A program made the translations under genes and the position numbers. DNA of 21,877 nucleotides. Origin: an uncultured virus (IMG/VR IMGVR_UViG_3300036781_000633). Its lineage: Duplodnaviria > Heunggongvirae > Uroviricota > Caudoviricetes. Positions 1 through 21,877 of this stretch are shown here, in pieces. Location: the IMG/VR virus record IMGVR_UViG_3300036781_000633. One strand, given 5' to 3'. How positions within the stretch are numbered: position 1 is the first letter of the stretch; every line of letters starts with the position of its first letter. The notes under the pieces are model-generated. The model searched no databases and was not told where the DNA came from. It worked only from the letters and a program-made list of their open reading frames with translations.

Positions 1-206
1 GAGCTCGAGCCGCCCGAGCTGGCATATGGGGTCGCACCCGGAATCGGCGTGCTCGAGATGACGTTGCCGCTCGCGTCGATGCACTCGTTCTGCGTGCCGT
101 CGATGGAGACGGCCATGCGCGCACACGTATCTCCGAGCGCGCCGCGCAGTGACGTGGTGGGGCGAAAGCGTCGGGCGGAACCGCGGGGGCTCGGTAGGTA
201 GCTCAT
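1..206 (-). CDS. Hypothetical (probable virion) protein, truncated by the left window edge
   Basis: ATG at 206-204 overlaps the TGA of the upstream gene (ATGA coupling). The frame stays open to the edge: MSYLPSPRGSARRFRPTTSLRGALGDTCARMAVSIDGTQNEC... It is not in the ORF track because no stop lies in the window. Confidence 0.7.
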   Translation of the reverse strand, partial: MSYLPSPRGSARRFRPTTSLRGALGDTCARMAVSIDGTQNECIDASGNVISSTPIPGATPYASSGGSS

Positions 207-2239
207 TTCACGGTTCCTCCGGCGGCCGCAGCCGCCTTTTTCTTGCGATTCGACTTCTTCGCCAACGCAGCAGCCAGCACGGCGCCACCGCCAAGGAGAG
301 CGATCAGCGTCCAGTTCGTCGGATGTGGGATCGGGATGCACTGGCTGATCCCGTTCCACATGTACCCGTCCGGACAGGTGGGAACCTGCGTCCCACCGCA
401 GAGTGCCGAGCCGACGGTGACCCCGGCACCCGCCGCCGCCCCATAGACTGGGTTCGCCTTGCCTGCACCCTGCGCCGCAGCATTCGCGGCGCCCGGTTGC
501 GTCAACACGCTGCACGCGAGACCACCGACGGCCGCGACGGCATCATTGACGGCGGTCAACACTGCCTGCGCGGCATCCGAGAGCTTCGAGGGGACGTAAG
601 CAATCAGGTCCCACAACGGTTGCCACCAAGGCTTCTGCGGCAGCGGCGCGAAGATGAGGCGCATGAACGCGGGCGGGTACGTCACCGTTTGGCTGCCGTC
701 CGGGTTGGCGGTCACCGTGTATGGATTGCTCATGATGAACATCCACATGCCCCAGTCTTTGTCGTCGGCGTTCGAGTGTTTGACGCCCTGGCGATCTATC
801 GTGCTTGGCATCACGTCGTAGATCGGCGGATCAGATCCGTCTGATCGAAACTTCACCGCCGGTACCGCCGTGAACTGTTGCGAGTCATAGGACAGCGTGC
901 CGTCGCTGTTCTGCGTGATGAGGTTCATGTCGAACGTGTTGCCACCTTCGACCGTCATGTCAGGCGTCAGGCCGATGGCGGCGTAGAAGTCGGCAGCCGT
1001 CGGAGACTGGTAGACCAGGTTCACCAGTTTTGCGCCCGGATCGCCAGCGTTGCACCCGCGCGAGCCACAATGGTAGTAGGAGCCCGACTGGGGCGAGCCC
1101 GGGCCGACGAGCTGACTGGCGGGCCATGCGGTTTTATACGCGCCGTTGTCGCCAAGCGGCCTCGTCAACTGCTTCAGCATCCACGGGCGGGCCGCCGCTG
1201 GGATCTGATTGGGCGTCGCGAAATCGACCGCGTACGAGCCGTGGGCAGGATCAAACTTGAACGGTCCCACGGTGATCTCGGTCGGCGACACCACCGTGTT
1301 CGAGGTCGAGATCGACGACACGTTCGTGAGCCCGCCTGCGGCGGCGCTCGTGGCGGCAGCGCTGGTGGCTCCCAGGCTGCGTCGTGCGGCGCGCTTGAAT
1401 AAACCGGCCATGGGTGCCGCGGAGCCCATGGCCGAACAGCCGGTGTATCCCGTGCAGCCGCTCAGGCCGCTCGGTCGCTTGCCCTGACCGCGAAGCGTGA
1501 GCTCGGCGATCATGCCCGCCGACATCGCTCGAGACAGCCCGGCGTGGAGTGCCTGCGCGGAGTTCATGCCCTGGCGGCGGAGATCGCGGGCGATCTTTCC
1601 GGTCCGCGCCTCGAGCGACGGGTCGATCGTCGCCAGTGTCTTCTTCAGGTACTTCGCGCGCTGGTTCGTCGGCAGCATCTGCATGCGCGCGAGGATGTTC
1701 GTGGCGGCGGCCTGACCGTACGACGGGAATGGGTCCGGCATCGGCGCGTCGCCGGCGATCCCGCCCAGCCCGTGGAGCGCTTGGCCACCTTGGTGGACAG
1801 GATGGAGTGGCTTCGCCTTGCCGATCCCCAGGATCGCGCGGAGCCATCCGAATGCGTCGGCCGCGCCCATCGACACCGCCTGGCCTTCGTTCGCTGGCAT
1901 GCCGATAGCGGGCGCGACCATGGTGATCTTCTGCGTGCCGCCGCTGTTCGGGACCCGCCGGTCGGAGAGGACCTGGGGGCGGCGGTTCAGGTAGTGGGGG
2001 ATCTTCGGGCCGGAGTACGTGCCGCTCGGCTGCCACCGGGTGGTCAGCGTGCCCTGACCGTAGCCCTCGTCGGTGACGTACTGAGGGACGTCATAGCCAC
2101 CGGTCTTGACGTTCGGATCGTCGTAGGTGCCGCGCGGCATCTGCTTCGTCACGAACGCGCGCCGCTGGAGTCCCTCTTGACGGACGTACTTGGGGAGGGC
2201 GAAGCCTGGGTCCCATGCTGGTGGAAGGTTGTAGGCCAT
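203..2239 (-). CDS. 678-aa putative virion membrane protein with C-terminal TM anchor
   Basis: AAAGG upstream of the ATG. N-terminal 36-aa duplication and Gly/Ala-rich linkers. C-terminal CPDGYMWNGISQC motif, then hydrophobic TLIALLGGGAVLAAALA and basic KKSNRKKK. No N-terminal signal peptide. Confidence 0.8.
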   Translation of the reverse strand: MAYNLPPAWDPGFALPKYVRQEGLQRRAFVTKQMPRGTYDDPNVKTGGYDVPQYVTDEGYGQGTLTTRWQPSGTYSGPKIPHYLNRRPQVLSDRRVPNSGGTQKITMVAPAIGMPANEGQAVSMGAADAFGWLRAILGIGKAKPLHPVHQGGQALHGLGGIAGDAPMPDPFPSYGQAAATNILARMQMLPTNQRAKYLKKTLATIDPSLEARTGKIARDLRRQGMNSAQALHAGLSRAMSAGMIAELTLRGQGKRPSGLSGCTGYTGCSAMGSAAPMAGLFKRAARRSLGATSAAATSAAAGGLTNVSSISTSNTVVSPTEITVGPFKFDPAHGSYAVDFATPNQIPAAARPWMLKQLTRPLGDNGAYKTAWPASQLVGPGSPQSGSYYHCGSRGCNAGDPGAKLVNLVYQSPTAADFYAAIGLTPDMTVEGGNTFDMNLITQNSDGTLSYDSQQFTAVPAVKFRSDGSDPPIYDVMPSTIDRQGVKHSNADDKDWGMWMFIMSNPYTVTANPDGSQTVTYPPAFMRLIFAPLPQKPWWQPLWDLIAYVPSKLSDAAQAVLTAVNDAVAAVGGLACSVLTQPGAANAAAQGAGKANPVYGAAAGAGVTVGSALCGGTQVPTCPDGYMWNGISQCIPIPHPTNWTLIALLGGGAVLAAALAKKSNRKKKAAAAAGGTVK

Positions 2240-2251
2240 GACGTAACCTTT

Positions 2252-2848
2252 CTACGCTGCAATCCCGTAGACGCGAGCGGCCTTGACCCGCCCCAGCATC
2301 TGTTTCGTCTTCTCGGCGGCGACCGGATCGAGCACGACCTTCTGACGGGTGCGGGGCTCGAGCCCGCACGTGAACACGTGCGAGTATTGGCGCTCGGTGC
2401 CGTAGAACATGTCTTCGAACGCGACGGTCACGAATTCCGCGCGGCCACCCATCGCGATCACCGCCGCCGCCAACCAGGTCGCGAGGTCGTCACAGTCGAC
2501 GCTCGGCACGTGGCCGTCCAAGATCATCTTGGAGATCACGTACGGCGCGCGCACGAGCTCGACACGCCGCGGGTCCCGCATGTAGCGGGTGTTCTGCAAC
2601 ATGAAGTAGAACACCGCGAGCATCTCGCTCGTGTAGTCCTTCGAGTCGACGTTCTCGCAGATCACCTCGCACAGTTGGCGGGTCTCGAGGTGGTCCTGGT
2701 CCTCACGCACCGCGCGCCGCATGACCTGGATGGTCTGCGGCGCGCCTGCGTACTCGATGTTGGACAACGGCGCGCGGTCCGGCACCCAGATGTTACGGGT
2801 GCCAGCGTACGCGCTATTTCGGTTGGTCCGGATCACGGTGGCCCACAC
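2252..2848 (-). CDS. Transglutaminase-like cysteine protease/transferase
   Basis: RYMRDP..VELVRAP, VDCDDLA (Cys), YSHVF (His) and VLDPV (Asp) give the transglutaminase-like triad in the expected order. Exact start uncertain (GTG, no clear RBS). Confidence 0.85.
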   Translation of the reverse strand: MWATVIRTNRNSAYAGTRNIWVPDRAPLSNIEYAGAPQTIQVMRRAVREDQDHLETRQLCEVICENVDSKDYTSEMLAVFYFMLQNTRYMRDPRRVELVRAPYVISKMILDGHVPSVDCDDLATWLAAAVIAMGGRAEFVTVAFEDMFYGTERQYSHVFTCGLEPRTRQKVVLDPVAAEKTKQMLGRVKAARVYGIAA

Positions 2849-2884: not shown

Positions 2885-4597
2885 CTAGCCGATGAGCCGC
2901 TCGGCAACCTTCCTCAGCCAGTTCTTTCCGGCCTGGGAGGAGAGGGGCGAGCTGCTCTGTAACTTTGCCACCTTAGACATGAAGACGTCAACGCCATGGT
3001 CCCGGAGGGTGATCTTCACCTCCTCTGGGATGTGGGGGCCGAAACTCTGGGCGACGATCTCGGGCTCCTGTCCACCACTGAAGGCGTTCTCGAGCATGGT
3101 AATGACCTGCGTCACCGTGGCCGGATCGACCTCGGGAAGCTCGGGCTCGACCACACCGTCCGGTCCCACCACCGGTCTCTTCTTCTTCTTCCGGATCGGG
3201 CCGGTCAACTGACCGTTGGGCTGGAGGAGGTACTTCTGGCCGTCGGGACCGTCGACGACTTGCGGTCGTCGCTGTTGCTGTTGGGCGATCTGCGCCTGGT
3301 GCGCTTGCTGGGCGGCGATGGCCTGTTGCTGCGGATTCGGAGCACCCTTGCCACCGATGATGCCCGCAATCGCGGCGATGTTCCCGGGATCGGTCACGGC
3401 CTCGATGATCCTCGCCCCGGTCGATTTCTCGTCCTCGTCGCCGCCGATGGCCTCGCGGATGGCCTGGACGTCCTTCATCGTCTCGATGATCCCCTTCTCT
3501 TTCTTCGCGCGAAGTTCCTTGACTTCGGTCGTCATGGCATCGATCTGGCGCTCGAGTGTCCGCACGGTGCCTTCGAGGAGCCGGATCTGGGTGTCGTTCG
3601 AGCTCTTGATCGCACCGAGCGCGATCTCGTGCGACATCCGCAGTCCCTGGATCTCGCGCTCGTGCTGCATCGTGATGTACTGCTTGTCGCGTTCGAAGCC
3701 ATCACGTAGCCGCGACTCCTGTTGCGACTGGCCATCCTTGATCGTGCGGATCTCCGCCTCGTACGCGATCCGCGTGGCCTGGACCTGATCGCCCGACTTC
3801 GTCATGAAGTGGGTCAGCATCCCCTCCTTGAACGTGTCCGTGGGGACGGGCTTGTTTTGGAGGTCGGCGATCAGTTTATCCTTCGCCGTCGATTGTTCCA
3901 TCAGCGCGACGATCTGCGCCTGCAGCGGCGCCACCGCGAGCCGGAGGGCGTCGAGCATCTGGGCATTGTTGTCGTGATGAACCTGTTCCTGGGGCCGCTC
4001 GGCGCGCCGGTTGGCTTGCTCGAGTTGATCCTTCATCACGCCCATCACCTCCTTGACGATCCCGGGCGAGTCCCCGTTCGCGGCCGGCGCCGTCTCCTTC
4101 GCCGGGGCCGAGGGGTTCTTGGCGCGGAGCGCGTCGAGCTTCGGTTCGCCGGCGACCGTGAAGTCCTTCGCCTTGTAGAACACGAAGCGTCCCTTCGCGT
4201 CGGGCCGCATCACCTTGATGCGCATCTTGCCGCCACCATGGTGCTGGGCGACGAGTTCCTCGTCGATCATCTGTTCGTATCGCTTCAGGTGACCGCTGCA
4301 CTGGATATCCCGCCCCGAGAACGTGTCGAACGCCGTTTCTGGCGACACGCGATGGAGCTCGATGCGAAACGCGCCCTCCTCCGCACCGATCGAGCGCATG
4401 AACACCGCGAGCGAGTTGTCCTCGTCCGCCTGGAGGCGACGTAGCGGCTCGGTCAGCGGCAGCGATGACGAGCGGGTTGGCTTGGGGTCGGTCTCGGCGT
4501 CGTTCGCCACAGCGGTCGTGTCGCCGAGCTCGAGAATCTCGGGCCGCGAGTCCACGCCCTCGGTGTCGTTTTTGGCCTCAGCCTTACTCGTCTTCAT
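2885..4597 (-). CDS. 570-aa coiled-coil hypothetical protein
   Basis: Start moved to ATG 4597, which has GAGGAGG 6 nt upstream inside the acidic tail of the previous gene. N-terminal globular region (QHHGGGKMRIKV), long E/Q/K/R heptad-like middle, Q-rich linker and helical C-terminal domain. Confidence 0.8.
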   Translation of the reverse strand: MKTSKAEAKNDTEGVDSRPEILELGDTTAVANDAETDPKPTRSSSLPLTEPLRRLQADEDNSLAVFMRSIGAEEGAFRIELHRVSPETAFDTFSGRDIQCSGHLKRYEQMIDEELVAQHHGGGKMRIKVMRPDAKGRFVFYKAKDFTVAGEPKLDALRAKNPSAPAKETAPAANGDSPGIVKEVMGVMKDQLEQANRRAERPQEQVHHDNNAQMLDALRLAVAPLQAQIVALMEQSTAKDKLIADLQNKPVPTDTFKEGMLTHFMTKSGDQVQATRIAYEAEIRTIKDGQSQQESRLRDGFERDKQYITMQHEREIQGLRMSHEIALGAIKSSNDTQIRLLEGTVRTLERQIDAMTTEVKELRAKKEKGIIETMKDVQAIREAIGGDEDEKSTGARIIEAVTDPGNIAAIAGIIGGKGAPNPQQQAIAAQQAHQAQIAQQQQRRPQVVDGPDGQKYLLQPNGQLTGPIRKKKKRPVVGPDGVVEPELPEVDPATVTQVITMLENAFSGGQEPEIVAQSFGPHIPEEVKITLRDHGVDVFMSKVAKLQSSSPLSSQAGKNWLRKVAERLIG

Positions 4598-5039
4598 CGT
4601 CATCCTCCTCGTCATCGGCATCGCTGCCAGCACTGTCCTCGTCCTCGTCCTCGTCCTCGTCATCCGGATCCTCGAGCACGGTGACTTCCTCGAGCGTTTC
4701 CTGCGCCACCTTGCACATCCCTCGGAACGCGTCGACCGCGCGCTTGACGGCGGCATTGCCCGGCGACTGGTCCTCGAGCGCCTTGGCGATCCCTAGGCCA
4801 GCAACGATCACATTCGCGAACACCTTCGCGGTCTCGGGATGGATGATCTCCTCCGCCCCGTTGAGGAGGTTCTCGATGCATTCGTCCTGTTCCTCGACCT
4901 CGGTCACCAAGCTCTCGACGAACGGCCACAGGGTGTTCTTCAGGTGGAGCACGATATCGGCAGAGCTCGTGAGCGGCCCCATCGTGGTGAGGGTTTGGAG
5001 GTTCGATTGCAGGTCGGCCTTCAGACTTTCGACGGTCAT
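4584..5039 (-). CDS. 151-aa acidic helical protein with Asp/Glu tail
   Basis: GGAGA RBS and ATGA overlap with the upstream stop at 5036-5038. MTVESLKADLQ... ends in DDEDEDEDED...DEEDDDEDE. Confidence 0.8.
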   Translation of the reverse strand: MTVESLKADLQSNLQTLTTMGPLTSSADIVLHLKNTLWPFVESLVTEVEEQDECIENLLNGAEEIIHPETAKVFANVIVAGLGIAKALEDQSPGNAAVKRAVDAFRGMCKVAQETLEEVTVLEDPDDEDEDEDEDSAGSDADDEEDDDEDE

Positions 5040-5602
5040 GGTGGATCTCCGAAGGGGCCGAGTTCCGCGGTGGGAGGCGCCTCGCCGTTGGTGATTTCCG
5101 GATCGCGCGCGGCAAGCTCGGCGGCGAGTAACTCGCGCTGGGCGGCAGCGACTTCCTCCGCCACACGAGCGGCATCGGCTCGAGCGACCTGCCACGCATT
5201 CATGTCCTTCAGGAATTGCTTCCCGCTCTTGGACTTCAGGTGGCGGTCGCGTTCGGCCTTGCGGCGCTTTTCGAGCGTCGCGCTGGTCGGCAGCCACAGG
5301 TTGCACGCGACGACAGGTGTGTCGCCGAGCTCGAACTCGATGCCCGATTGCGGGTAGCACGTGTGGTGGACCTGGACGTGGAGGCCACCATCCGAGCCGT
5401 CGCGCGGCGTTTCGGCGTCGAGCTGCGTCTCGAGCCGGTGGTAATGGACGCATGGGCCTTGCTCGCACATCCTCGGCGCGAGCCTTGGCGATCCTTGCGT
5501 CTGTGAATCGGTGAACAGCAACGATCCGTCCGGTCCCAACGGTGGGAGCGGGGACGGAGTGAAGCCATCCGTGAGGTCATCCCTGACCGAACGTCGTTTC
5601 AT
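5036..5602 (-). CDS. 188-aa hypothetical protein, Cys/His cluster (possible Zn binding)
   Basis: AAGGAG upstream of ATG 5602 (MKRRSVRDD). Motifs CEQGPCVHYH, HHTCYP and ACNLW. First gene of the leftward arm. Confidence 0.7.
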   Translation of the reverse strand: MKRRSVRDDLTDGFTPSPLPPLGPDGSLLFTDSQTQGSPRLAPRMCEQGPCVHYHRLETQLDAETPRDGSDGGLHVQVHHTCYPQSGIEFELGDTPVVACNLWLPTSATLEKRRKAERDRHLKSKSGKQFLKDMNAWQVARADAARVAEEVAAAQRELLAAELAARDPEITNGEAPPTAELGPFGDPP

Positions 5603-5984
5603 CCCGGAGAACTCCTTTCGGACGGCTACGATAAGCACTCCGGAACGACTGCGGCGGATTTGCGCGGGACTTTCCGGGGACTCTCGACGGCTTTTTCAGC
5701 CTTCAAAGTGGGGTCCAGGGACCATGGCCTTTGGCCCAGGGGTTGAAAAGCCTCCGGAGTAGGCGCCCAAGTAGCTGTTAGGACGTCCGAAACTGGTAGG
5801 TTTTGGACGTGTTTCACCACGTCTGACGTCTGGTTTCTACCACTCCGGAGTGCCGATCCCGGCCAAGTCCCCGAATTTCGGACCTTGCCAGTGGCAATCT
5901 AATCCGGAATACCTTTCGCAGTATCCCTTTCCATCGGAAACGAACCAACCCCGGGGGCATGGCCCCCGAGAGAGTAGGGACCCC
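5603..5984. promoter_or_regulatory. Divergent control region with multiple palindromes (promoters/operators, possibly origin)
   Basis: The only large non-coding gap, between divergent arms. Inverted repeats at 5783-5810, 5841-5852, 5871-5881, 5885-5897, 5928-5940 and 5952-5968, plus four TCCGGA copies. Confidence 0.65.
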
Positions 5985-6245
5985 ATGGGGGCAAAGAAAC
6001 TGAAGGCGTCTGCGGTGCTGGTGCGGGACGGCAAAGAGTCGACAGCAACCGTCACGCTTGTCACGGGCTCGGCACCTGTCATCCGCATCGATGGCACCAT
6101 GGGGTCCTGGTATCTCGCGGACGTTCGCGACTCTAACGGAGTGTGGGTCGATTTCGGGCAAGGACTCGCGTGCACCAACATTGCAGCGCTTGTCGCGGAG
6201 GCATACGCGATGTTGCGTGGCGACGGCGACGGGGAGTGCGCGTAA
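5985..6245 (+). CDS. 86-aa hypothetical phage protein
   Basis: AGGGA before ATG 5985 (MGAKKLK). Its stop overlaps the next ATG (TAATG). Confidence 0.7.
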   Translation: MGAKKLKASAVLVRDGKESTATVTLVTGSAPVIRIDGTMGSWYLADVRDSNGVWVDFGQGLACTNIAALVAEAYAMLRGDGDGECA

Positions 6246-6604
6246 TGGGCGCCGCAGATCAAGAGGGACTCCGGCTCGCTGGCGCGTTGATCCCATACAT
6301 CGGTTCGACCCCCACAACGCGGCGTCTTTGCGTCGAGATCGCGACACTCGCACGCCGCTATCAGCGGATTCAGGTGGCCAAACTGAATCGCTTCCTGACA
6401 GCAAGCGAGCGCACCATCGAGCCGAGACTCGAAGACCATATCCGGGCGCTCGTGGCCTCACTGCCCGCAACGGACGATGGCGCGATCACTGTCAGTTTCG
6501 ACGGTGATCCGCGAGGATCCGCGGTGCACGTCACTGTGCCGAATCAACCGCACGCGGGTAATTCGCTTGGACTCGGTGGTGAGTTCTATGTGGGAGGCGA
6601 ATAG
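6245..6604 (+). CDS. 119-aa hypothetical phage protein (GDPRG motif)
   Basis: TAATG coupling with GGGGAG upstream. Contains FDGDPRGSAV. Confidence 0.75.
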   Translation: MGAADQEGLRLAGALIPYIGSTPTTRRLCVEIATLARRYQRIQVAKLNRFLTASERTIEPRLEDHIRALVASLPATDDGAITVSFDGDPRGSAVHVTVPNQPHAGNSLGLGGEFYVGGE

Positions 6605-6606
6605 CC

Positions 6607-6999
6607 ATGGCCCGAACCACCGAGCATCCGGTGATGGCATACATGCGCTATGAGGCGCGCGGGTTCGTGACGTCATTCATGACGGATCTCACGAACCACG
6701 ACGCGGCAGCACTCAGCAAGCGTCCGCATGACGAGTGTTTCTCGTGGATCGTCAACCCATGCGGGACACACATCGCATTCCCCCATCAAAGCGATTGCAA
6801 CGGCGCATGGTCTACACGCTTCGCAGTCGAGGTGATGCGCGCCATGGGGCCCGATAACCTCCGCTACTTTTGGTGGGATGGTACCCACCTCGTGCGCATC
6901 AAGTGTGCGGCAGATCTCGACGACAAAATGGCCGAGCATGAGGCCACACTCCGCGAAACAGCCAAGCGAGCACACCTCGCTGAGATGGGAGTGGCGTAG
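6607..6999 (+). CDS. 130-aa hypothetical phage protein
   Basis: GGGAGG RBS and 2-nt gap after the previous stop. Protein-like composition (YFWWDG). Confidence 0.75.
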   Translation: MARTTEHPVMAYMRYEARGFVTSFMTDLTNHDAAALSKRPHDECFSWIVNPCGTHIAFPHQSDCNGAWSTRFAVEVMRAMGPDNLRYFWWDGTHLVRIKCAADLDDKMAEHEATLRETAKRAHLAEMGVA

Positions 7000-7001
7000 T
7001 C

Positions 7002-7229
7002 ATGGGTCCCGTCAAGATCTACAACCGATCGGCATGGCCGGCGATCATGGGAATCGTCCATTGCTGTGACGGCACGCGTTACACCATCAAGATTGACGAT
7101 GACATCGTCACAGTACATCTCGCGGACAACGGTCTCTGCAATACCACGAGCGCAAAACGCAGTCGCACGACCGGGTTCGCCGCGTCCAGGATGGTGAGGC
7201 GGTACCTACAATCCATGGGAGGCGTGTAG
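7002..7229 (+). CDS. 75-aa hypothetical protein
   Basis: GGGAG RBS and 2-nt gaps on both sides, so it fills the operon exactly. Confidence 0.65.
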   Translation: MGPVKIYNRSAWPAIMGIVHCCDGTRYTIKIDDDIVTVHLADNGLCNTTSAKRSRTTGFAASRMVRRYLQSMGGV

Positions 7230-7231
7230 TC

Positions 7232-7891
7232 ATGGCCCGACGCAAGAAACAGGTAATCCCCGTGATCGCTGCACCCTCTTCGCAATCGGCGAAGGTGCCG
7301 CGCCCGTTCTATGCCCCTCCTCCGCAACGCGAGCTTGCCGATACCGTGCTCGAAGACGCCAACACATTGCTTGCGCGTCACGATGTCGGTGTCACCGATG
7401 ACACGATCGACATCTGGCAGACACTTCGAGATCTCGCCGGAGTTGTCGGTGACATGTCGGTGCTGCAAGGGCAGATCGCCGAGCTTCAAGCGGACGTCGA
7501 GGCGGCAGACGGGCTTACGAAGGAAGCGAAGGAGCGCGCAACGCTCGTCGCGACCGATGCGGATCGCCGATGTCATGAGGCCACCGGCGAAATGCTACGG
7601 ATGCGCACGGAGCGCGACGCGCTCAATACAGAGCTCGAACAACTCCGTCACAAGTCCTCGAACCAAGACGCCCAGATCCGTATGGGGATCGCGGCGAACA
7701 TGGAGTTGCAGTCAAAGATCGACACGCTGACGTCGAGGCTTGCCACTCAACAGATCGAGCCATCGGCCGAACAAACCATCATGTCAAACATCCGTCGGCG
7801 GTATGCGACCTACAGCGCTCGCGGTCCGTCCGGTATGTCCCCAACCGCTATCGCTCGTGATCGGGCACTGGCAGAACGCGAGAACGCGTAA
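7232..7891 (+). CDS. 219-aa coiled-coil hypothetical protein
   Basis: GGGAGG RBS. Basic N-terminus and heptad-like LQGQIAELQADVE...LNTELEQLR. Confidence 0.75.
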   Translation: MARRKKQVIPVIAAPSSQSAKVPRPFYAPPPQRELADTVLEDANTLLARHDVGVTDDTIDIWQTLRDLAGVVGDMSVLQGQIAELQADVEAADGLTKEAKERATLVATDADRRCHEATGEMLRMRTERDALNTELEQLRHKSSNQDAQIRMGIAANMELQSKIDTLTSRLATQQIEPSAEQTIMSNIRRRYATYSARGPSGMSPTAIARDRALAERENA

Positions 7892-7893
7892 CG

Positions 7894-8507: not shown

Positions 8508-8551
8508 CCGCTACTCGTCGTCGGACATGGTCCGACAGAAACGGAGATCCC

Positions 8552-9468: not shown

Positions 9469-9471
9469 CCC

Positions 9472-11353: not shown

Positions 11354-11400
11354 TACTGTGATACGAACCCATCGCCGCATGGCGGCAGAGGAGTCTCGAG

Positions 11401-13698: not shown

Positions 13699-14195
13699 CA
13701 CCCCCATCCGGCACGATGTCCGCCATGGAAAAACGCGACGCGTGGCTCGAGGCGGAAGCACTGGCGCTCGGCACCGACGAGCAGCGTGAGCGCTGGAACG
13801 CCGGCGCGCTACCCGATCCGGAGATCGCCACCCTGGCCCGCAACCAACTCTTCCAGCCGCTCGACGGCATGGTGCGGTGGCGCAAGATCGGCCCAGAAGA
13901 GATCCGCCATCTCACCCACCTCGGCCTCGGATGCTCAAGCTCGTCGGTGGAGTTCGATTCGAAGCCCACCAACGAGATCGACGCCCAGCAGTGGGTGATT
14001 CGCAATCGCATCATGCGAGCGTGCGCGATCATCGACACTCACGAGTGGATGAAGCGCGCGCGAGCGCACTGTGAAATCGAGGTCATCGATCACATCGCGA
14101 ACTGCGTGTTGTGCGACGTCACTGTGAGTCGGCTGTCGGTGATCGTCCGCGTCCCATGGGTCGGCCGGATGCTGATGAGGGAGTACGCCCTGTGA
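13695..14195 (+). CDS. 166-aa hypothetical protein
   Basis: Coupled at both ends. CVLC near the C-terminus. Confidence 0.7.
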   Translation: MTPPSGTMSAMEKRDAWLEAEALALGTDEQRERWNAGALPDPEIATLARNQLFQPLDGMVRWRKIGPEEIRHLTHLGLGCSSSSVEFDSKPTNEIDAQQWVIRNRIMRACAIIDTHEWMKRARAHCEIEVIDHIANCVLCDVTVSRLSVIVRVPWVGRMLMREYAL

Positions 14196-14602
14196 AATTC
14201 GACCGCGAGATTCGCCTTCTGTACGGCGCTCACCAGATTTTTATCCGGCTGGGGTTCGACCCGGCGGCCCTCTACACCGGCATCAACTGGGGCCGGGTCA
14301 TCCTCGTCGCCGCTCCTGGATATCCCGGGCTCGCCGACCAGTCCGAGCTCGCGAAGGTAAAGCCGCGGTTCGTATTCACGGTCTGCCAGACCGAGATGTA
14401 CGAGGCGTGTTTCAACACGAAGTGGCTCCAGGCCATCGAGCAGATCCAGAGCCTTCGCAACGTCACCGTGGCAGAGCGCGATGCCATGGTCGCCGAGTTC
14501 GAGCGCGATCTCGACCGCGTAGGTCTCGTCATCGCGCTCTATGCGAAGGGCATGCTCCCCGGCCAATCCACGACGACCCCTCCATCGTCCGAGGCGTCGT
14601 GA
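14192..14602 (+). CDS. 136-aa hypothetical protein
   Basis: GAGGGAG RBS, GTGA coupling, and a TGATG link to the next gene. Confidence 0.7.
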   Translation: MKFDREIRLLYGAHQIFIRLGFDPAALYTGINWGRVILVAAPGYPGLADQSELAKVKPRFVFTVCQTEMYEACFNTKWLQAIEQIQSLRNVTVAERDAMVAEFERDLDRVGLVIALYAKGMLPGQSTTTPPSSEAS

Positions 14603-14880
14603 TGGGTGCCGCGTGGTTGGAGCGTCCCCAGGAATGGACGCAGCGGATGATCATCCTCACGCACGTCGCCGACCAGTGCGGCTACGAGAGCGTCATGGCC
14701 ATGCTCGAGGCGGCGACCTTCGACGTCTGCCCGGGCGTCTGCATGGGGTGCAAGACGGTCGTCGATAGCGTCGAGCCCGACACTCGCGACAACTGCTGCG
14801 AGGAGTGCCACGCGGCGGGGCTTGGATGGGATCTGTGCCGTACTGTCAAGAGCGTGCTCGTCATCGCGGAGTTGGTGTGA
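14602..14880 (+). CDS. 92-aa zinc-finger-like phage protein
   Basis: GAGG RBS. CPGVCMGC...VEPD...CCEEC...VKSVL. Confidence 0.75.
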   Translation: MGAAWLERPQEWTQRMIILTHVADQCGYESVMAMLEAATFDVCPGVCMGCKTVVDSVEPDTRDNCCEECHAAGLGWDLCRTVKSVLVIAELV

Positions 14881-15215
14881 AGCCGCGCAAGCAATGCAAG
14901 AAATGCCCGTGGAAGGTCGGCACCAACCCGAACGAGATCCCGAACGGGTACAGCGTCGGAAAACACTGCGACCTCAAGCGCACCATCGCCACTGCCGATA
15001 GTCCCGTGCTCGCAGACTCGCTCCACGTGATGGCGTGCCACGAGACGAGCGTTGGTCAGATTTTGCCGTGCGTCGGGTGGCTCGTGCACCAGATGGGACC
15101 CGGCAATAACTTCGCGCTCCGTCTGCGGGTGGTGACCGGGCAGATCGATGCCAACGTCCAGACCGTCGGTCCGCAACACGAGCGGTTCGAGGACACGCTG
15201 CCGAGGGACAAGTGA
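14877..15215 (+). CDS. 112-aa Cys-rich protein, DUF6283-like
   Basis: GGAG RBS and GTGA coupling. CKKCPWK...MACHET...CVGWL pattern. Confidence 0.7.
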   Translation: MKPRKQCKKCPWKVGTNPNEIPNGYSVGKHCDLKRTIATADSPVLADSLHVMACHETSVGQILPCVGWLVHQMGPGNNFALRLRVVTGQIDANVQTVGPQHERFEDTLPRDK

Positions 15216-16351
15216 ATGCCATCTACAACGAGATCGAACCGTTCGCATGCGACTGGCTCGAGGCGCTCATCGCCGGAGGTCACATCGCCGCCGGCCGCGT
15301 CGAACGGCGAAGCATCACCGAGCTTCGACCAATCGACGTTGCCGGGCCTGGACAGCGCCATTTCTTCGCCGGTATCGCCGGATGGTCTGCCGCCTGTCGA
15401 CTCGCTGGAGTCCCAGACGACGCCGACATCTGGACCGGCTCGTGCCCGTGTCAGCCGTTCTCGGACGCGGGCACGCGGAGCGGAGTACTCGACACTCGAC
15501 ATCTTTGGCCAGCATGGTTCGACCTCATCCGCGAGTGCCGACCTGCAGCGATCTTTGGAGAGCAAGTTGCGTCTCGAGATGGACTCGCGTGGCTCGACCT
15601 TGTTCGCGCTGACCTGGAACGATGCGGTTACGCCTTCGGGGCATCGGATCTGTGCGCTGCGGGCGTCGGATCCCCCCACCGACGACAGCGACTCTATTTC
15701 ATGGCCTACACCCGTGAAGGAGGACGCCCGTTCCTCGGCGAGACACGGATACATGATAGAGGGCAATGCCGGGACCACGTTGCTAGATGCGGTCCGGTTG
15801 GCGGCATGGCCGACAGCGAAGGTGAACGATGCCGAGCGGGGCGGATGCCTGGAACACATGGACGGTCGACGCTCGAATCTGAACGACTCGGTTCATCTAG
15901 CGAGTTGGCCGACGTCGCGAGCGACCGACGGATCGAACGGCTCGACGACGCTTCGCTCAGAGAACGGCATCGACCTGCCAGCCACGGCGGGACTGACGGG
16001 CTGGGCGACGCCGTCCGCGACGGACGGCAAGATCGCATCCAACCCGGGACAGAGACGCGGACAAACGCTCGAGAACTACCGGGCGATGAAGCGCAACATG
16101 AAGTCAGGCGCACGTATCGCGATCACCCATCCTTCGCTCCAGGCGCAACTCGTGGTTTCTGGGCGCGCCCTGACTGGCTCTTCTGTCGCGACGGGAAGTG
16201 GAGGCCAGCTGAACCCGGATCACAGCCGTTGGCTTATGGGGTTCCCGGTCGAGTGGGCCTCTTGCGGGGCTACGGCAACGGCATCGTCCCGGAGGTCGCG
16301 GCGTCATTCATCCGGGCAGCGCGCGCGGCGGTCGAGGAAACGCGACGCTGA
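15212..16351 (+). CDS. DNA cytosine-C5 methyltransferase, catalytic (alpha-type) polypeptide
   Basis: FFAGIAG (motif I), GSCPCQPFS (IV, catalytic Cys), FGEQV (VI), PHRRQRLYF (VIII) and LRGYGNGIVPEVA (X). No recognisable motif IX in this frame. Confidence 0.92.
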   Translation: MNAIYNEIEPFACDWLEALIAGGHIAAGRVERRSITELRPIDVAGPGQRHFFAGIAGWSAACRLAGVPDDADIWTGSCPCQPFSDAGTRSGVLDTRHLWPAWFDLIRECRPAAIFGEQVASRDGLAWLDLVRADLERCGYAFGASDLCAAGVGSPHRRQRLYFMAYTREGGRPFLGETRIHDRGQCRDHVARCGPVGGMADSEGERCRAGRMPGTHGRSTLESERLGSSSELADVASDRRIERLDDASLRERHRPASHGGTDGLGDAVRDGRQDRIQPGTETRTNARELPGDEAQHEVRRTYRDHPSFAPGATRGFWARPDWLFCRDGKWRPAEPGSQPLAYGVPGRVGLLRGYGNGIVPEVAASFIRAARAAVEETRR

Positions 16352-16358
16352 TCGGTAA
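15216..16358 (+). CDS. Overlapping +1-frame methyltransferase beta-type polypeptide (WPT repeats and motif IX); true start probably internal
   Basis: Open for 380 codons across the whole MTase gene. Four W(P/A)T repeats and LNPDHSRWLMGFPVEW, which matches C5-MTase motif IX. Confidence 0.75.
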   Translation: MPSTTRSNRSHATGSRRSSPEVTSPPAASNGEASPSFDQSTLPGLDSAISSPVSPDGLPPVDSLESQTTPTSGPARARVSRSRTRARGAEYSTLDIFGQHGSTSSASADLQRSLESKLRLEMDSRGSTLFALTWNDAVTPSGHRICALRASDPPTDDSDSISWPTPVKEDARSSARHGYMIEGNAGTTLLDAVRLAAWPTAKVNDAERGGCLEHMDGRRSNLNDSVHLASWPTSRATDGSNGSTTLRSENGIDLPATAGLTGWATPSATDGKIASNPGQRRGQTLENYRAMKRNMKSGARIAITHPSLQAQLVVSGRALTGSSVATGSGGQLNPDHSRWLMGFPVEWASCGATATASSRRSRRHSSGQRARRSRKRDADR

Positions 16359-16440: not shown

Positions 16441-17490
16441 ATGACGACGACAGCAAGGGAGGTGGAACTCAAGGATCTCCATCTCGAGCACGCGATGTGG
16501 GCAAACCCACGCACGACGACAGGACTTGGCAGCGACGATCTCGACGACCTCGCGGCGTCGATCAAGGAACGCGGGATCTTGGTGCCGCTGGAGGTCTTGC
16601 GGGTCAAGAACGAGGACGGTGGCGTCATCGACCTGGTGGTCGACGGGCAGCGTCGGGTGCTCGCGGCGAAACTCGCCGGGTTCAAGGGCTCCGCGCCGAT
16701 CCCGGTGGTCGATGCGCGCGAGGACACGCTCGAGTTCAACTGGCACGAGAGTGACGGTGTGTTCCTCGACATGCTCAGTATCGCGGTACAGCGCGTCGGT
16801 CTCTCCAGCTTCGAGCTCAGCGAAGCGGCCGAGCGGCTCAAGAACCGCGGCAAGAACGGCGAGGAAATTGCCCGCGCGATCAACAAGTCGGCCTCCTGGG
16901 TGAGCCGCATGCTCAAGGCTCGAGCATCGGCCGACCCGAAGATCTTGGCGGCATGGAAGGCAGGCAAGCTGACCGACGAGGTGTTCAAGGATCTCTCTGA
17001 CGTCGCCACCGCGAAGCAGAGCGACGCGCTCGACGACTACCTGGGCGTGAAGAAAAGCGACCGGGGCGGTGCTCGCGCGATGGCCAAGGAGGCGAAGGCG
17101 AAGACCGTGAAGAACGGCCACGCCAAGCACAAGCCTGTGGTCTCCGGCGAACAGAAGACGCTCTTCGAAGACGACCACGCGGAAGCCAAGGCCAAGAAGA
17201 ACCAGCCGCCCCGCAAGGACTTCCTCGAGGAGCTCGTCGCGCTCTCCGAAAAGCGGACGCCGACCTCGGACTACGTCAAGGGCATCATGGACGGAGTCGG
17301 CTACACCCTCGGCACGAAACAGCTCGACGAGTTCTCGCCCGCCTGGGCGAAGTATGTCAACCGCGTCGGTGGCAGCGCGACAACGAGTTTTTCCTCGCCG
17401 AAAGCAAAGAAAGGCAAGGCCAAGGGCAAGATCTCCAAGCCCACCAAGGCTCGCAAGCCATCGAAGAAGTCTGCTAAAAAGAAACGGTGA
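16441..17490 (+). CDS. parB: ParB/RepB/Spo0J-family protein with HTH and Lys-rich tail
   Basis: AAGGA RBS. NPR...LAASIKERGILVPL...VDGQRRVLAA (ParB/Srx domain), EEIARAINKSASWVSRML (HTH) and a Lys-rich C-terminus. Confidence 0.85.
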   Translation: MTTTAREVELKDLHLEHAMWANPRTTTGLGSDDLDDLAASIKERGILVPLEVLRVKNEDGGVIDLVVDGQRRVLAAKLAGFKGSAPIPVVDAREDTLEFNWHESDGVFLDMLSIAVQRVGLSSFELSEAAERLKNRGKNGEEIARAINKSASWVSRMLKARASADPKILAAWKAGKLTDEVFKDLSDVATAKQSDALDDYLGVKKSDRGGARAMAKEAKAKTVKNGHAKHKPVVSGEQKTLFEDDHAEAKAKKNQPPRKDFLEELVALSEKRTPTSDYVKGIMDGVGYTLGTKQLDEFSPAWAKYVNRVGGSATTSFSSPKAKKGKAKGKISKPTKARKPSKKSAKKKR

Positions 17491-17804: not shown

Positions 17805-18053
17805 ATGGGAGCACTGAAAGACCTCTTCGATTCCGCGCACTCGATGTTCGCGGTCATCCTATCCATCGGTGCCGTCGTGCTCACTGCGTTGGGCAAGATG
17901 ACGACCGACCAGTTCATCACGTACAGCGAGTGGATCTACGGGATCTTCGCTGGCGCCACGGCGGGGATCACCGTCGCCGACAAGCTTGCCACTGGAAAGG
18001 TGGAGGCGGCCAAGGCCGCCGCCATCATCGCGTCCATGCCCAAGGCTGCGTAA
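17805..18053 (+). CDS. 82-aa two-TM membrane protein, holin-like
   Basis: Two hydrophobic segments (MFAVILSIGAVVLTALG and WIYGIFAGATAGITVA), upstream of a peptidase. Confidence 0.65.
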   Translation: MGALKDLFDSAHSMFAVILSIGAVVLTALGKMTTDQFITYSEWIYGIFAGATAGITVADKLATGKVEAAKAAAIIASMPKAA

Positions 18054-18063: not shown

Positions 18064-18441
18064 ATGTCTCGCATCATCGTTCCGCTGTCGCTGTTCGTGC
18101 TCACGTTTGTCATCTGCATTGGTCTCGTCGCCGTCCCGTCGTGCTCGACGCTAAAGGCGGATACGCCCGGCGATGTCGTCGACTGCACTGGGTCGAACCT
18201 CTCCGCGCTCGCGGCGCTCCTGAAGGGACAGTCCGAGGACGCGATTCTATCGGCGGCGGAGTCCGCTGGTTTGCAGATCGGCGGATGCATCATCGCCGAG
18301 CTCATCAACCAGTGGGAGGCCGGACACAAGGTCGGGGTGACCGCGACCGTGATCGCGGGCGATCCGCACGCGCTGATGGACTGGTTCCGCGCGAAGGTCG
18401 CGCCCGGGAAGACGTTCAAGACGACGGCGGGGGCGCGATGA
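18064..18441 (+). CDS. 125-aa putative lipoprotein
   Basis: AAGGAG RBS. Hydrophobic N-terminus ending VAVPSC. Confidence 0.7.
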   Translation: MSRIIVPLSLFVLTFVICIGLVAVPSCSTLKADTPGDVVDCTGSNLSALAALLKGQSEDAILSAAESAGLQIGGCIIAELINQWEAGHKVGVTATVIAGDPHALMDWFRAKVAPGKTFKTTAGAR

Positions 18442-19205
18442 TCGGGCTCCACGCGGGCGTCCGGCTCGGCAAGATGGCGCCTCGGTACGATCCGCGAACG
18501 CTCCTCATGGCGAGTTACGTCAAGCACGAGTTCATCCCGCCACCGCCCGACAAACGTTACTGGTCGGCGAAGGCCGCCTCCGACTGGGGGATGATGAAAA
18601 ACGACGTGCTGGGGGACTGCACGTGTGCGGCCATCGGACACCTGATCCAGGCGTGGACCGCGAACTCTACCACCGAGGTCACGATCTCCGATGACGACGT
18701 GGTGCGTCTGTATGAAGAGTTCTGCGGCTACAAGCCGGGCGATCCCGGCACCGATGAGGGCGGCGTCGAGCTCGACGTCCTCAATGGCTTCGTGAAGCAG
18801 GGTGCCGCCGGGCACAAGATCGACGGCTATGTCGCGCTCGAGCCGCACAACCACGACCACGTGCGCGCGTCCATCGACCTCTTCGGTGGCATCTACACCG
18901 GTGTGGCGCTCCCGCTTTCGGCGCAGGACCAGAAGGTATGGAGCGTCGTTCGTCACGCGCCGAACGCCACCCCGGGATCGTGGGGCGGTCACGCCATCGC
19001 CATCGTGGACTACGACAAGAGCGGGCTTGCGTGCGTGACCTGGGGCGCGCTCAAGCGCATGACCTGGCAGTGGTTCGATATGTATTGCGACGAGGCGTAC
19101 GCCATCCTCTCCCAGGATTGGGCGAACGCCGGACGCATGGCGCCGTCGGGCTTCGACTACGCCGCACTCACCGCCGATCTGGCCTCGCTGCGTCACGCGG
19201 GCTGA
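18438..19205 (+). CDS. Papain-like (C1-type) cysteine peptidase
   Basis: ATGA coupling. NDVLGDCTCAA (Cys), WGGHAIAIVDYD (His) and CVTWG (equivalent of NSWG). Confidence 0.8.
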   Translation: MIGLHAGVRLGKMAPRYDPRTLLMASYVKHEFIPPPPDKRYWSAKAASDWGMMKNDVLGDCTCAAIGHLIQAWTANSTTEVTISDDDVVRLYEEFCGYKPGDPGTDEGGVELDVLNGFVKQGAAGHKIDGYVALEPHNHDHVRASIDLFGGIYTGVALPLSAQDQKVWSVVRHAPNATPGSWGGHAIAIVDYDKSGLACVTWGALKRMTWQWFDMYCDEAYAILSQDWANAGRMAPSGFDYAALTADLASLRHAG

Positions 19206-19218: not shown

Positions 19219-19800
19219 GTGCCGTCGCGCGACGTTAACCAGTGCTGCTACAAAGAGGGGCGTCGTCGGTGCCGAAAGAACGGTACCGGCAACCCGCCGC
19301 TCTGCAACGCGCACCGCATCGCGTTCGCCGAGCAACTCGCGCCGGAACACGCGGCCGATCCGACGCTGGGCGATCTGGCGTCGGAGTTCCTGAATGGTGG
19401 GAGGATCAGCCTCGACGACGCGGTCCGGGCGGCGACCGGATGGGTGATGGGCGGCAACTACGGCCGCTTTTATCCGCCGACCGACGCGACACGACCGCCG
19501 CGCGTGACGCACACGGCCTCCCCATGGCAGAACATGTCGCCGGACGAGATCCTCCATGATCTCCGCCAAGGCGTCCGCTCGCAATCTCCCCCGCCGCCCA
19601 AGCCGCCGCCTCGCGACCCCCTCGAGCAGAAGCGCAAGGAGGCGAGGGTCGTGCTGGGGTTCGCGCCGAACGACGAGCTCGACGCCCAGCGCATTCGTCG
19701 GCGGCACCGCGAGCTCGCGATGCGGCATCACCCGGATCGCGGGGGATCTGTCGCTAAGATGGCGAAAATCAACGCGGCTGTCGACGTGCTCCTGGGCTGA
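19219..19800 (+). CDS. J-domain (DnaJ-like) protein with N-terminal Cys/His motif
   Basis: C-terminal ARVVLGF...RELAMRHHPDRGGS...INAAVDVL contains HPD. N-terminal CC...C...CNAH. Confidence 0.85.
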   Translation: MPSRDVNQCCYKEGRRRCRKNGTGNPPLCNAHRIAFAEQLAPEHAADPTLGDLASEFLNGGRISLDDAVRAATGWVMGGNYGRFYPPTDATRPPRVTHTASPWQNMSPDEILHDLRQGVRSQSPPPPKPPPRDPLEQKRKEARVVLGFAPNDELDAQRIRRRHRELAMRHHPDRGGSVAKMAKINAAVDVLLG

Positions 19801-19816
19801 CTGGTAGCATCGCTCG

Positions 19817-20569
19817 GTGGCGGAACCGAACCAGTCCCGTGCGGATCAGGCCACCGCGATCCTGAACACGTACGCGACTTGGATCGACCAGTACCGAGGT
19901 GGGATGTCGCGCGAATTCGCGGCGACGATCATGCTTTGGGAGAGCGGCGGCAACTTCAATGCCCCGGGCGATCCGAGTCTGGGCGAGGTTGGGTTCTACC
20001 AGGTCGCGCAGTACGTCCCCGCCGAGTTTGGCCTTCCGCCCGAAGCTCGCAACGATCCCGAGGGCAACGTCTGCATCGGCCTGGCCGAGTACGGGCTCGA
20101 GAACTTGACGTGGTACCTGTTCCTGCCATCGCTGATCGCGCGTGATTCGCGTGACGCATGGATGCTCGCGCGGCTCTCGTTTGCCATCGGCCGCGGTGGT
20201 TCCCAGCAACTGGCGTCGATGGCAGCGGCGAGCTCGCCTGGGGACGTATTCGGCGACATCGTACGCTACGTCACCGCGAACGGAGCTCCGGCACTCGGCT
20301 CCCAGTCCGGCGCGAAGGTGCAGCAACGCGTGGTTGACATCCTGACGCAGATGCAGATCGCCGACCTCGTGGGCCCGAACCTGTTCGGTCCACCAACGTT
20401 TCCTCCACCGCCGCCAGGTGTCGATTCGAACGGCACGCCGTACGATCAGCTATGGACGGCGCCGCCCCAGGTCGCGCCGTACTACTCGCAACCGCTCGGC
20501 TGGGACATCTGGCTTGGGCTTGGACTTGTGGCGGGGGCGGCGTACTTTCTATTTGGGAGACGTTCATGA
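19817..20569 (+). CDS. SLT-like lytic transglycosylase with C-terminal membrane anchor
   Basis: ATIMLWESGGNFNA (catalytic Glu motif), GFYQV and DPEGNV. Pro-rich linker, then WLGLGLVAGAAYFLF followed by GRRS. Confidence 0.75.
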   Translation: MAEPNQSRADQATAILNTYATWIDQYRGGMSREFAATIMLWESGGNFNAPGDPSLGEVGFYQVAQYVPAEFGLPPEARNDPEGNVCIGLAEYGLENLTWYLFLPSLIARDSRDAWMLARLSFAIGRGGSQQLASMAAASSPGDVFGDIVRYVTANGAPALGSQSGAKVQQRVVDILTQMQIADLVGPNLFGPPTFPPPPPGVDSNGTPYDQLWTAPPQVAPYYSQPLGWDIWLGLGLVAGAAYFLFGRRS

Positions 20570-21066
20570 AAGCACCACCGCCATCACTGCGCCGCATGCC
20601 ACCGCCGCACGTCAGTCCGATGACGCAGCGGCAAGCACAGATCCTGAAGGCGCCACCGAACAAGATCGATCCGGTGCAGATGGATCGCAACGTCGCCCAG
20701 GCGCACGCGCCCCGGACCACGCAGGGCGATCTCCGCACCGACGCGTTCACGTACTTCACGAAAGCCGACATCACCGACCGGCTCTACAACGGCGACCGGC
20801 TGTGGGCGCGCGTGCTCTTGACACTGGAAAGCGCAGGGCCGGTGGCGGTCGGGACCCGAGCCACCATCACGCCGGTGCTCTCGGGGCAGGGTCAGCTGTT
20901 GACCACCGGCCAGACGCGTGAGTTCATCATCGGCAAGGGTACCGTGCTCTACATCGCATCCACCACCGTGAACCGGGTGTCCGTGACCATCGAGCCCATC
21001 GCGTGGGCGGAGCAGATCACCGGACTTATCACGGCACTGCTCACTGGGGCTCCGGTGAGCAAGTGA
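20566..21066 (+). CDS. 166-aa putative structural protein (Pro-rich N-terminus, beta-rich C-terminus)
   Basis: GGGAGA RBS and coupling at both ends. Alternating hydrophobic strand-like segments. Confidence 0.7.
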   Translation: MKAPPPSLRRMPPPHVSPMTQRQAQILKAPPNKIDPVQMDRNVAQAHAPRTTQGDLRTDAFTYFTKADITDRLYNGDRLWARVLLTLESAGPVAVGTRATITPVLSGQGQLLTTGQTREFIIGKGTVLYIASTTVNRVSVTIEPIAWAEQITGLITALLTGAPVSK

Positions 21067-21854
21067 CCTACCCGCAACCCGACTCCAATCTGGCGCTGAT
21101 CGAAGGGTTCAACTTCTTTCGCCTGAACTCCGAGCTCGTCTCGCCCGGCGACATCTTCGAATCCACCCAGAGCTCGTACGCGATCTGCGTCGGCCCGGAC
21201 TCGGACATCGCCAATTATGGCTGCGCTTATTTTGATACCCAGGCACCCGACAACGTGCAGTTGCTGACGTTCTCTCCCCAACGCGGTTTCTCGGGACTCA
21301 TCCCGGCGCTCGCGGGTCAGTACGCGCCCTCGGGGCGTCCGGGGAAGACGCTCTTCTGGAGCAACGATCTCTTCGACCCGGCATACGTGCCCAGCGCCGG
21401 GATCGGTGCCGGTGGTTCCATCGAACGGGTGCAACCCATCTTCGATGTGATCCAGTACTTCACCGAAGAACCATCGATCACGCCACAGCGGACCGACAAG
21501 GTCTTCTTCTATCAGCAGATCCCGATCGACATCGTCTCCGCGGGCACGTCGTACGTGATCATCCCGTTTTACGGACGCAAGAGCGCGTCGATTCGATTCG
21601 CGAATGTCGGTAATGGCTCGCTGGCCTTTGGCGTGCTGGGCGTCAATTATTATGCGGTCACCTTGGGCAAGGCCGTCGAGACCGTGATCCATGCATCCGC
21701 TCTGGTCGCCGCTAACGCGCAGGTGTTCGTACCGGTCACATTTGCCGCCAACGGAGCCTTCGACGCCATCGTGTGCTCCGTCGGCCTCTTGACCGGGGGC
21801 ACCTATACGGCTGGAGACTTTCCGTTGACCATCACGGTATCGGATCAGGAGTAA
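21063..21854 (+). CDS. 263-aa beta-rich putative virion protein
   Basis: GTGA coupling. Rich in F/Y/V/I/G/S/T with few charged residues. Confidence 0.7.
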   Translation: MTYPQPDSNLALIEGFNFFRLNSELVSPGDIFESTQSSYAICVGPDSDIANYGCAYFDTQAPDNVQLLTFSPQRGFSGLIPALAGQYAPSGRPGKTLFWSNDLFDPAYVPSAGIGAGGSIERVQPIFDVIQYFTEEPSITPQRTDKVFFYQQIPIDIVSAGTSYVIIPFYGRKSASIRFANVGNGSLAFGVLGVNYYAVTLGKAVETVIHASALVAANAQVFVPVTFAANGAFDAIVCSVGLLTGGTYTAGDFPLTITVSDQE

Positions 21855-21858
21855 CGAG

Positions 21859-21877
21859 ATGCCACCAGCAGCATCAC
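21859..21877 (+). CDS. Start of the next gene, truncated by the right window edge
   Basis: AGGAG (21847-21851) lies 7 nt before ATG 21859 (MPPAAS...). Confidence 0.5.

Follow-up and report, generated by a model that had tools for sequence, protein, structure and literature searches.

What kind of virus lies behind a 21,877-nucleotide stretch of uncultured viral DNA (IMG/VR record IMGVR_UViG_3300036781_000633; "the window" below means this whole stretch) that encodes tail-anchored membrane proteins, a transglutaminase-like enzyme and a transglycosylase, and in which terminase, portal and tail genes are missing? An earlier note, made from the letters of the window, had proposed a tailless virus of double-stranded DNA (dsDNA) with an internal membrane. 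We now consider it likely that the window belongs to a near-complete viral genome, that of a tailless and probably temperate dsDNA virus which infects bacteria, is uncultured and has two single jelly-roll coat proteins. The window makes up about a quarter of such a genome, relatives having 73-92 kb.

Gene content and the candidate capsid module

The window corresponds to G000:C12:17708-39584, on the minus strand of an 83,855-bp contig in an assembly of 213 contigs and 3.79 Mb, with a G+C content of about 65% in the assembly and alike in the window. Genes were called from third-position G+C (GC3), the flanks being taken as loci L001-L004 and L110-L113, and negative window coordinates denote positions left of the window start. 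Pfam and PHROG profiles were run on the 27 open reading frames (ORFs) of the window and then on the called ORFs of the whole contig. Terminase, portal, capsid and tail families were matched by 0 of the 27 window ORFs in Pfam and by 0 of the 27 in PHROGs, just as the earlier note had claimed for terminase, portal and tail; family matches in the window are limited to ParB, DUF6283, a methyltransferase-like protein (PHROGs only), a J-domain (below the Pfam cutoff) and phrog_19005. Among the called ORFs of the contig, whose uncalled gaps are all shorter than 860 bases, these scans likewise detected neither terminase nor portal, and no HK97 capsid, tail tube or tape measure; for portal and HK97 capsid this absence is profile-based, most late proteins having been assessed by profile and not by fold. 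There are no tRNAs in the contig, and no housekeeping or chromosomal genes were seen in it or its flanks. The contig is viral from end to end.

Where HK97 capsid, terminase and tail genes, or chromosomal genes unaccompanied by a capsid gene, would have spoken against a tailless virus, the flanks carry a candidate jelly-roll capsid module. It contains two adjacent single jelly-roll candidates 6.6-8 kb left of the window: a gene for 191 aa (start re-set; about -6585 to -7160, L002:6673-7248) and one for 212 aa (about -7392 to -8030, L002:7393-8031). The earlier note had pictured two arms converging on a capsid module outside the window; the module is indeed outside, but only beyond the left end, and lysis and integration genes close the right arm. 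Within the module these two genes show the highest conservation, the first being present in 87 of 87 related loci (median identity 72%) and the second in 77 of 87 (median identity 60%). At E≤1e-3 there are 686 homologues of the 191-aa protein; identity to it is 72-94% in the best 120, and many lie on contigs of 75-104 kb. Its profile search yields 392 clusters at 50% identity.

AlphaFold models both proteins as eight-stranded jelly rolls, the 191-aa protein from 51 sequences with a predicted local distance difference test (pLDDT) score of 78 and a predicted template-modelling (pTM) score of 0.76, and the 212-aa protein, which has a long N-terminal helix, from 61 sequences with a pLDDT of 90 and a pTM of 0.74. 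As modelled, the fold is firm for both. The structure-match values for it are middling, with nucleoplasmin (7.1) and peptidylglycine monooxygenase (7.0) scoring alike; with Foldseek neither model matched a PDB entry at E≤1e-3, PRD1 P3 appearing only among weak rows (E 0.06-0.12), and the best BFVD match of the 191-aa model is I1ZBH9, a 211-aa entry of unconfirmed identity (E 6.2e-4, TM-score 0.54). No conserved late protein of at least 270 aa without a transmembrane helix was seen, and both conserved candidates model as single jelly rolls. From their conservation, pairing, size and neighbours we infer that the 191- and 212-aa proteins form the capsid.

The link to a cultured virus lies within the window. 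The late (virion) operon starts at position 5638 and continues leftward on the minus strand for more than 25 kb, and its gene at 2252..2848 (-) encodes a transglutaminase-like Cys-His-Asp enzyme homologous to gp34 of the tailless phage SSIP-1, which is annotated "structural protein". BLASTP aligns the two over 144 aa (E 4e-12, 25% identity), with Cys, His and Asp in register, and hhalign gives a probability of 98.2% and E 4.4e-14; in 24 related loci the median identity of the enzyme is 61%. Pfam (even at E≤1) and PDB phmmer are silent on this protein, and it is the ESM Atlas, which places it with Transglut_core clusters (0.97), together with the aligned triad that upholds its earlier designation as transglutaminase-like. 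When 12 late families were compared with SSIP-1 (288 hhalign comparisons, gp43 left out), gp34 was the one firm match and ORF33, encoded just upstream of gp34, the one weak match, to a 623-aa coiled-coil protein (2885..4756, -; probability 43%, E 2.5e-4); the coat candidates had none. The 623-aa protein occurs in 17 of the 87 related loci at a median identity of 32% and is possibly an assembly or scaffold factor.

Predicted tail anchors are over-represented in the operon. By eye, about 12 late proteins end in a transmembrane helix and a basic tail, and under a strict tail-anchor script 7 of the 19 proteins of the late operon qualify, vs 94 of 3121 (3.0%) from the rest of the assembly (Fisher p 1e-6). 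In the window this architecture, without an N-terminal signal, is present in the translations of 203-2239 (-) and 19817-20569 (+), as had been noted before. The former is a 678-aa protein (203..2239, -) with a Lys/Arg tail and no Pfam (even at E≤1) or PHROG family, whose N-terminal ~270 aa are conserved in 22 loci at 42%. Several tail-anchored proteins (about -12589 to 2239) were also seen by eye to begin M-x-Y/F, with a basic stretch ending G-[ILM]-[LG]-D in the first 20-30 residues.

Directly upstream of the coat pair lies the gene of a 507-aa protein (L002:5009-6532, +; about -6531 to -5008) that consists of a 240-residue arm with a net charge of +123 (RRRRRR runs with short spacers), a hydrophobic core and ELGVEE acidic repeats; 76 of the 87 related loci conserve its C-terminal half. 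Downstream follow an M23 peptidase and three spike-like proteins of 151, 718 and 742 aa (L002:14931-18475 and L111; about -14930 to -20702), two of which carry pectate-lyase domains. By eye, the spike-like proteins share their N-terminal ~60 residues, and the 151-aa protein shares a C-terminal domain with one of 288 aa; the set looks like interchangeable receptor-binding modules on one anchor. The cell-wall enzymes encoded comprise peptidoglycan-binding, M23, GH25 and SLT proteins.

A particle of the following kind may be envisaged. Signal-less, tail-anchored viral proteins would insert into the host membrane, over which the two single jelly-roll coat proteins would assemble into an icosahedral shell, by analogy with SSIP-1, P23-77 and SH1. 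The membrane-anchored protein with the +123 arginine arm may condense the DNA, and the transglutaminase-fold enzyme may be carried in the particle or act on it. The pectate-lyase spikes would bind or cut host surface polysaccharide, and the SLT, M23 and GH25 enzymes would open peptidoglycan at entry or exit.

Packaging, genome form and alternative readings

The earlier note had anticipated a packaging ATPase of the FtsK/HerA kind in the flanks. A HerA/FtsK-type ATPase of 612 aa is present (L003:11810-13648, +; about -33647 to -31809), but it stands in a DNA-metabolism block about 32 kb away, some 25 kb from the coat genes, and its role in packaging is doubtful. It bears the PHROG label "terminase large subunit" through phrog_2666; the PDB search shows it to be HerA-like (best 9x1l_A, E 2.7e-7; STIV B204 only at E 0.024-0.027), and its best phage homologue (35% identity, E 1e-49) is a "hera helicase" from the early region of a tailed phage (MW202482.1) with terminase, portal and capsid genes of its own. 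Since it shares only 27-28% identity with its positional counterparts in related viruses vs 35% with the helicase of the tailed phage, we do not count it as the packaging enzyme. That it is nearer to a gene of a tailed phage than to the counterparts of its relatives suggests an exchange between unrelated phage groups. A Walker A pattern occurs in two proteins, this ATPase and an 87-aa DUF7387 protein, and scanning IMG/VR with the ATPase returned no locus. Given the evidence on the ATPase and the arginine-rich protein, the DNA may be packaged without a motor.

The related genomes are circular. The ends of two relatives, G001:C2 (88,678 bp) and G002:C411 (72,801 bp), overlap exactly, by 55 and 98 bp, and both genomes are syntenic with the entire contig, against which they are circularly permuted; together with G004:C342 (minus its last 77 bases) they make up the three whole relatives compared here. 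No tailed-phage hallmark was found by Pfam in 119 of the 121 ORFs of the closed relative G001:C2. The same genome has extras that are not in the contig of the window, namely a Tad2-like anti-Thoeris gene, a histone-deacetylase-domain protein, a DNA polymerase III beta clamp, a Mom-like protein and a sigma-70 region-4/zinc-knuckle protein.

The candidate coat gene is carried by 178 metagenome contigs, and DNA of the window was found in 7 soil runs from 4 studies, 2 being possible sources of the window itself; no RNA data set is listed among those that contain it. Six contigs from metagenome-assembled genomes (MAGs) in GTDB (L007-L012), five of 68-89 kb and one a 5.6-kb fragment, carry the gene at 62-78% identity. 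They are labelled Peribacteria, Myxococcales, Gemmatimonadota (two), Thermomicrobiales and Deltaproteobacteria, that is, five phyla including a bacterium of the candidate phyla radiation. This spread points to misbinning, so the labels give no host, and the contigs are probably viral DNA misbinned in public genomes. Nor did clustered regularly interspaced short palindromic repeats (CRISPR), through which the earlier note had hoped to reach the host, supply one: the contig's own assembly holds no spacer-like match, and one 25-base exact match falls within a coding region without repeats. As for integrated forms, the metagenome contigs gave only joints with 21-22-base sides or strain replacements.

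Several points weigh against the tailless reading as a whole. No conserved packaging ATPase of the A32, FtsK or HerA type was found beside the coat genes, nor any within 20 kb of them. With tblastn neither coat candidate matched any of 50,697 phage records at E≤1, and hhalign detected no similarity of the pair to SSIP-1 gp45/gp46. The 83,855-bp contig has no end overlap, and two other studies contain contigs that reach some 3 kb or more beyond its start; it is therefore near-complete, not complete, and the circularity conjectured in the earlier note is seen in the relatives and not in the contig itself. Finally, by way of the pectate-lyase domain the three spike proteins are matched to PHROG "tail spike" families, and such spikes are typical of tailed phages. 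This last point, together with the lack of any family for most late proteins and the terminase label of phrog_2666, would suit a very divergent Caudoviricetes phage in which the profiles miss the genes for terminase, portal, HK97 capsid and tail. We regard such a phage as very unlikely, since the terminase large subunit is the easiest phage gene to detect and none was found by Pfam and PHROGs in the contig or by Pfam in 119 of the 121 ORFs of the closed 88.7-kb relative, while the phrog_2666 protein is HerA-like and its tailed-phage homologue occurs alongside a separate terminase; moreover, the best conserved late proteins are the jelly rolls of 191 and 212 aa, a size that leaves no room for an HK97 fold, and the only late ORFs of 379-392 aa are unconserved or encode membrane proteins.

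Could the membrane instead be an outer envelope? In an enveloped or pleomorphic virus (plasmavirus- or pleolipovirus-like) without an icosahedral shell, the jelly rolls would be nucleocapsid or spike parts, which would accommodate their middling matches, the many membrane proteins, the predicted DNA-binding function of the arginine-rich protein and the lack of a packaging ATPase by the coat genes. Such a virus is very unlikely in our view: homology and a shared layout tie the contig to SSIP-1, an icosahedral phage with an internal membrane, two adjacent and very conserved jelly-roll genes are what two-coat-protein viruses have, and the common N-terminal anchor of the spikes suits a fixed vertex. 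A non-viral mobile element with cellular jelly rolls, a large plasmid or one borne by membrane vesicles, would likewise explain ParB, the integrase, the many methyltransferases, the missing motor and the binning of contigs into MAGs. We regard it, too, as very unlikely, as the five MAG contigs of 68-89 kb (of six) are labelled as five phyla, which fits free viral DNA misbinned, one relative is in IMG/VR, and the anti-defence gene Tad2 occurs in a relative; depolymerase spikes, a set of lysis genes and early genes of phage families (DUF5131, Dam, PAPS reductase) are present in the contig, and the homologue of gp34 is a virion protein in SSIP-1. What the sequences show is the gene content and its conservation, the folds of the two coat candidates, the homology to SSIP-1 gp34 and the circularity of the relatives; a membrane, an icosahedral particle and motor-free packaging are what we infer.

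Other genes of the window and flanks

The window falls into three blocks: the four genes with which the virion operon starts (5638 to 203), an early/accessory block (5850-17490), which includes the methyltransferase-like gene and ParB, and a second conserved block (17805-22227). The operon is opened by a gene of no assigned function for 200 aa (5036..5638, -), a GC3 call without Pfam or PHROG family whose product has 41-46% identity in two of the three whole relatives. The first part of the early block (5850..14195, +) consists of small ORFs of no assigned function and without Pfam family, little conserved in relatives, among them a match to phrog_23179 at 11775-12260 and a signal-peptide protein at 11401-11829. 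At two places, -3735 to -3427 (+) and 14272-14532 (-), the gene caller chose antisense shadow ORFs, and codon-position G+C puts the real genes on the opposite strand. The real gene of the first place, about -3862 to -3323 (-), encodes a 179-aa soluble protein in a region conserved in 26 loci; the second call, with a G+C of 0.39/0.64/0.85 by codon position (the antisense-frame pattern), is the shadow of an ORF of 163 aa (14111..14602, +).

A DUF6283 protein follows at 14805..15215 (+; Pfam 5.1e-8, phrog_18928 1.2e-19), then a DNA methyltransferase-like protein at 15216..16358 (+), matched by phrog_1008 (5e-27) and phrog_31772 (1.2e-24) and by no Pfam family. The ParB-like protein with a Lys-rich tail (16441..17490, +) was called correctly in the earlier note (Pfam ParB_N 2.5e-6, PHROG ParB-like 3e-15) and has 36-42% identity in two of the three whole relatives.

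The second conserved block begins with an 82-aa membrane protein (17805..18053, +; hydrophobic segment 7-25; 36-38% identity in two relatives). Next come a 354-aa protein of no assigned function (18141..19205, +; phrog_19005 3.2e-39; no match in Pfam or PDB phmmer), in which Cys and His motifs are seen by eye only, and a DnaJ (J-domain) protein (19219..19800, +; Pfam DnaJ 4.3e-5), which is under the curated Pfam cutoff, as is the J-domain in the relative G001:C2. The SLT-like lytic transglycosylase (19817..20569, +) has a C-terminal membrane anchor, a transmembrane helix with an RRS tail, and shares 43-46% identity with two relatives. Pfam (even at E≤1) shows no SLT here and PDB phmmer is empty; the ESM Atlas places the protein in SLT clusters (features 0.95, 25 of 30 matches), with structure TM-scores of 0.55-0.62, in support of the earlier assignment.

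Two beta-rich proteins, predicted from sequence then as now, follow. One has 166 aa (20566..21066, +; start re-set to an ATG overlapping the preceding stop), no Pfam or PHROG family and a single chance-level row in PDB phmmer (E 0.25). The other is a 283-aa ORF (21003..21854, +), variable among relatives and without a PDB phmmer match, with four homologues at 35-97% identity, homologue lengths of 260-277 aa, and 29-43% identity in the three whole relatives. We rejected the two as a coat pair of the P23-77 kind, as they are far less conserved than the 191-/212-aa pair. The right end is crossed by a 122-aa ORF (21859..21877, continuing to 22227, +; 33-39% identity in two relatives; no Pfam or PHROG family), so that of the structural genes once thought to run off both ends only those on the left, in the minus-strand operon, do so.

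Further right lie genes for a dual-specificity phosphatase, the GH25 muramidase, a tyrosine integrase, Dam, DUF5131 and other phage families. Further left than the late operon are glycosyltransferases, the HerA-like ATPase, DUF1643, a methylase fragment, PAPS reductase and a radical-SAM protein.

A possible lineage and its nearest relatives

Tailless membrane phages have so far been represented by a few small genomes, of 10-44 kb, and a lineage about double in size and common in soil and sediment would extend what is known of the range of bacterial jelly-roll viruses. Its coat proteins would form hundreds of clusters, it would bring along an integrase, partition genes and numerous genes for DNA modification while lacking any packaging motor that can be recognised, and SSIP-1, an orphan isolate and the only cultured relative, would gain a large family. 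It is possible, and we propose it tentatively, that a widespread undescribed lineage of family rank or above exists, comprising circular 73-92 kb tailless internal-membrane viruses of soil and sediment that infect bacteria, are distant kin of SSIP-1 and fill their shells without an ATP-driven motor: a membrane-anchored, protamine-like arginine protein would condense the genome as the two single jelly-roll proteins close around a membrane rich in tail-anchored proteins. Among the listings and abstracts searched, no published description of a group of ~80-kb tailless jelly-roll phages was found. How some 80 kb of DNA enters a membrane-lined shell is the question that such viruses raise; if the motor-free lineage is real, they would far exceed in size all other known viruses with single jelly-roll coats, and would be a bacterial parallel to core condensation as in adenovirus or Sulfolobus polyhedral virus 1 (SPV1). 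In addition, viral contigs of this kind are probably assigned as a matter of routine to MAGs of bacteria to which they do not belong.

The nearest relatives are SSIP-1, the Helvetiavirae and SPV1. According to reviews, SSIP-1 is a tailless phage of 100 nm with T=49, a circular 44-kb genome, an internal membrane and two coat-protein types (PMC6356626, PMC6260650, PMC4958249). As in our contig, a large protein precedes the transglutaminase-fold structural protein (here gp34) near the start of its late operon, many of its late proteins end in a transmembrane helix, and it has adjacent structural genes for 210 and 211 aa, gp45 and gp46; the circular dsDNA genome it shares with the relatives of the contig. 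The top BFVD match, I1ZBH9, itself of unverified identity, equals gp46 in its length of 211 aa. SSIP-1 differs in its 44 kb, against 73-92 kb here, in coat proteins without detectable sequence similarity to the 191-/212-aa candidates, in its halophilic host, whereas the contig comes from soil, and in that no long arginine-rich protein was seen among its late proteins (R+K fractions 0.06-0.28, highest in a 47-aa ORF).

The Helvetiavirae (Sphaerolipoviridae, Simuloviridae and Matsushitaviridae, with SH1, HHIV-2, HCIV-1 and P23-77) have a conserved core that includes a packaging ATPase beside the coat genes, unlike our contig, which has none within 20 kb of the coat genes and shows no sequence similarity to them. 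[quoted passage not shown] The earlier label "Varidnaviria-like" is therefore upheld in its tailless, internal-membrane part but not as a PRD1-type double jelly roll, for which a candidate pair of single jelly rolls has to be substituted. SPV1 (Portogloboviridae) is an archaeal virus of about 20 kb, unlike the contig, which encodes the bacterial peptidoglycan enzymes GH25, M23, SLT and PG-binding. PRD1 has a double jelly-roll coat protein, an A32-type packaging ATPase and, in P7, a virion-associated lytic transglycosylase. Tectiviridae such as PRD1 resemble the proposed virus in being tailless with an internal membrane, features read here from gene content, and PRD1 is set apart by its double coat fold, the candidates here being single jelly rolls. 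Its genome is linear and of 15 kb (PMC6260650).

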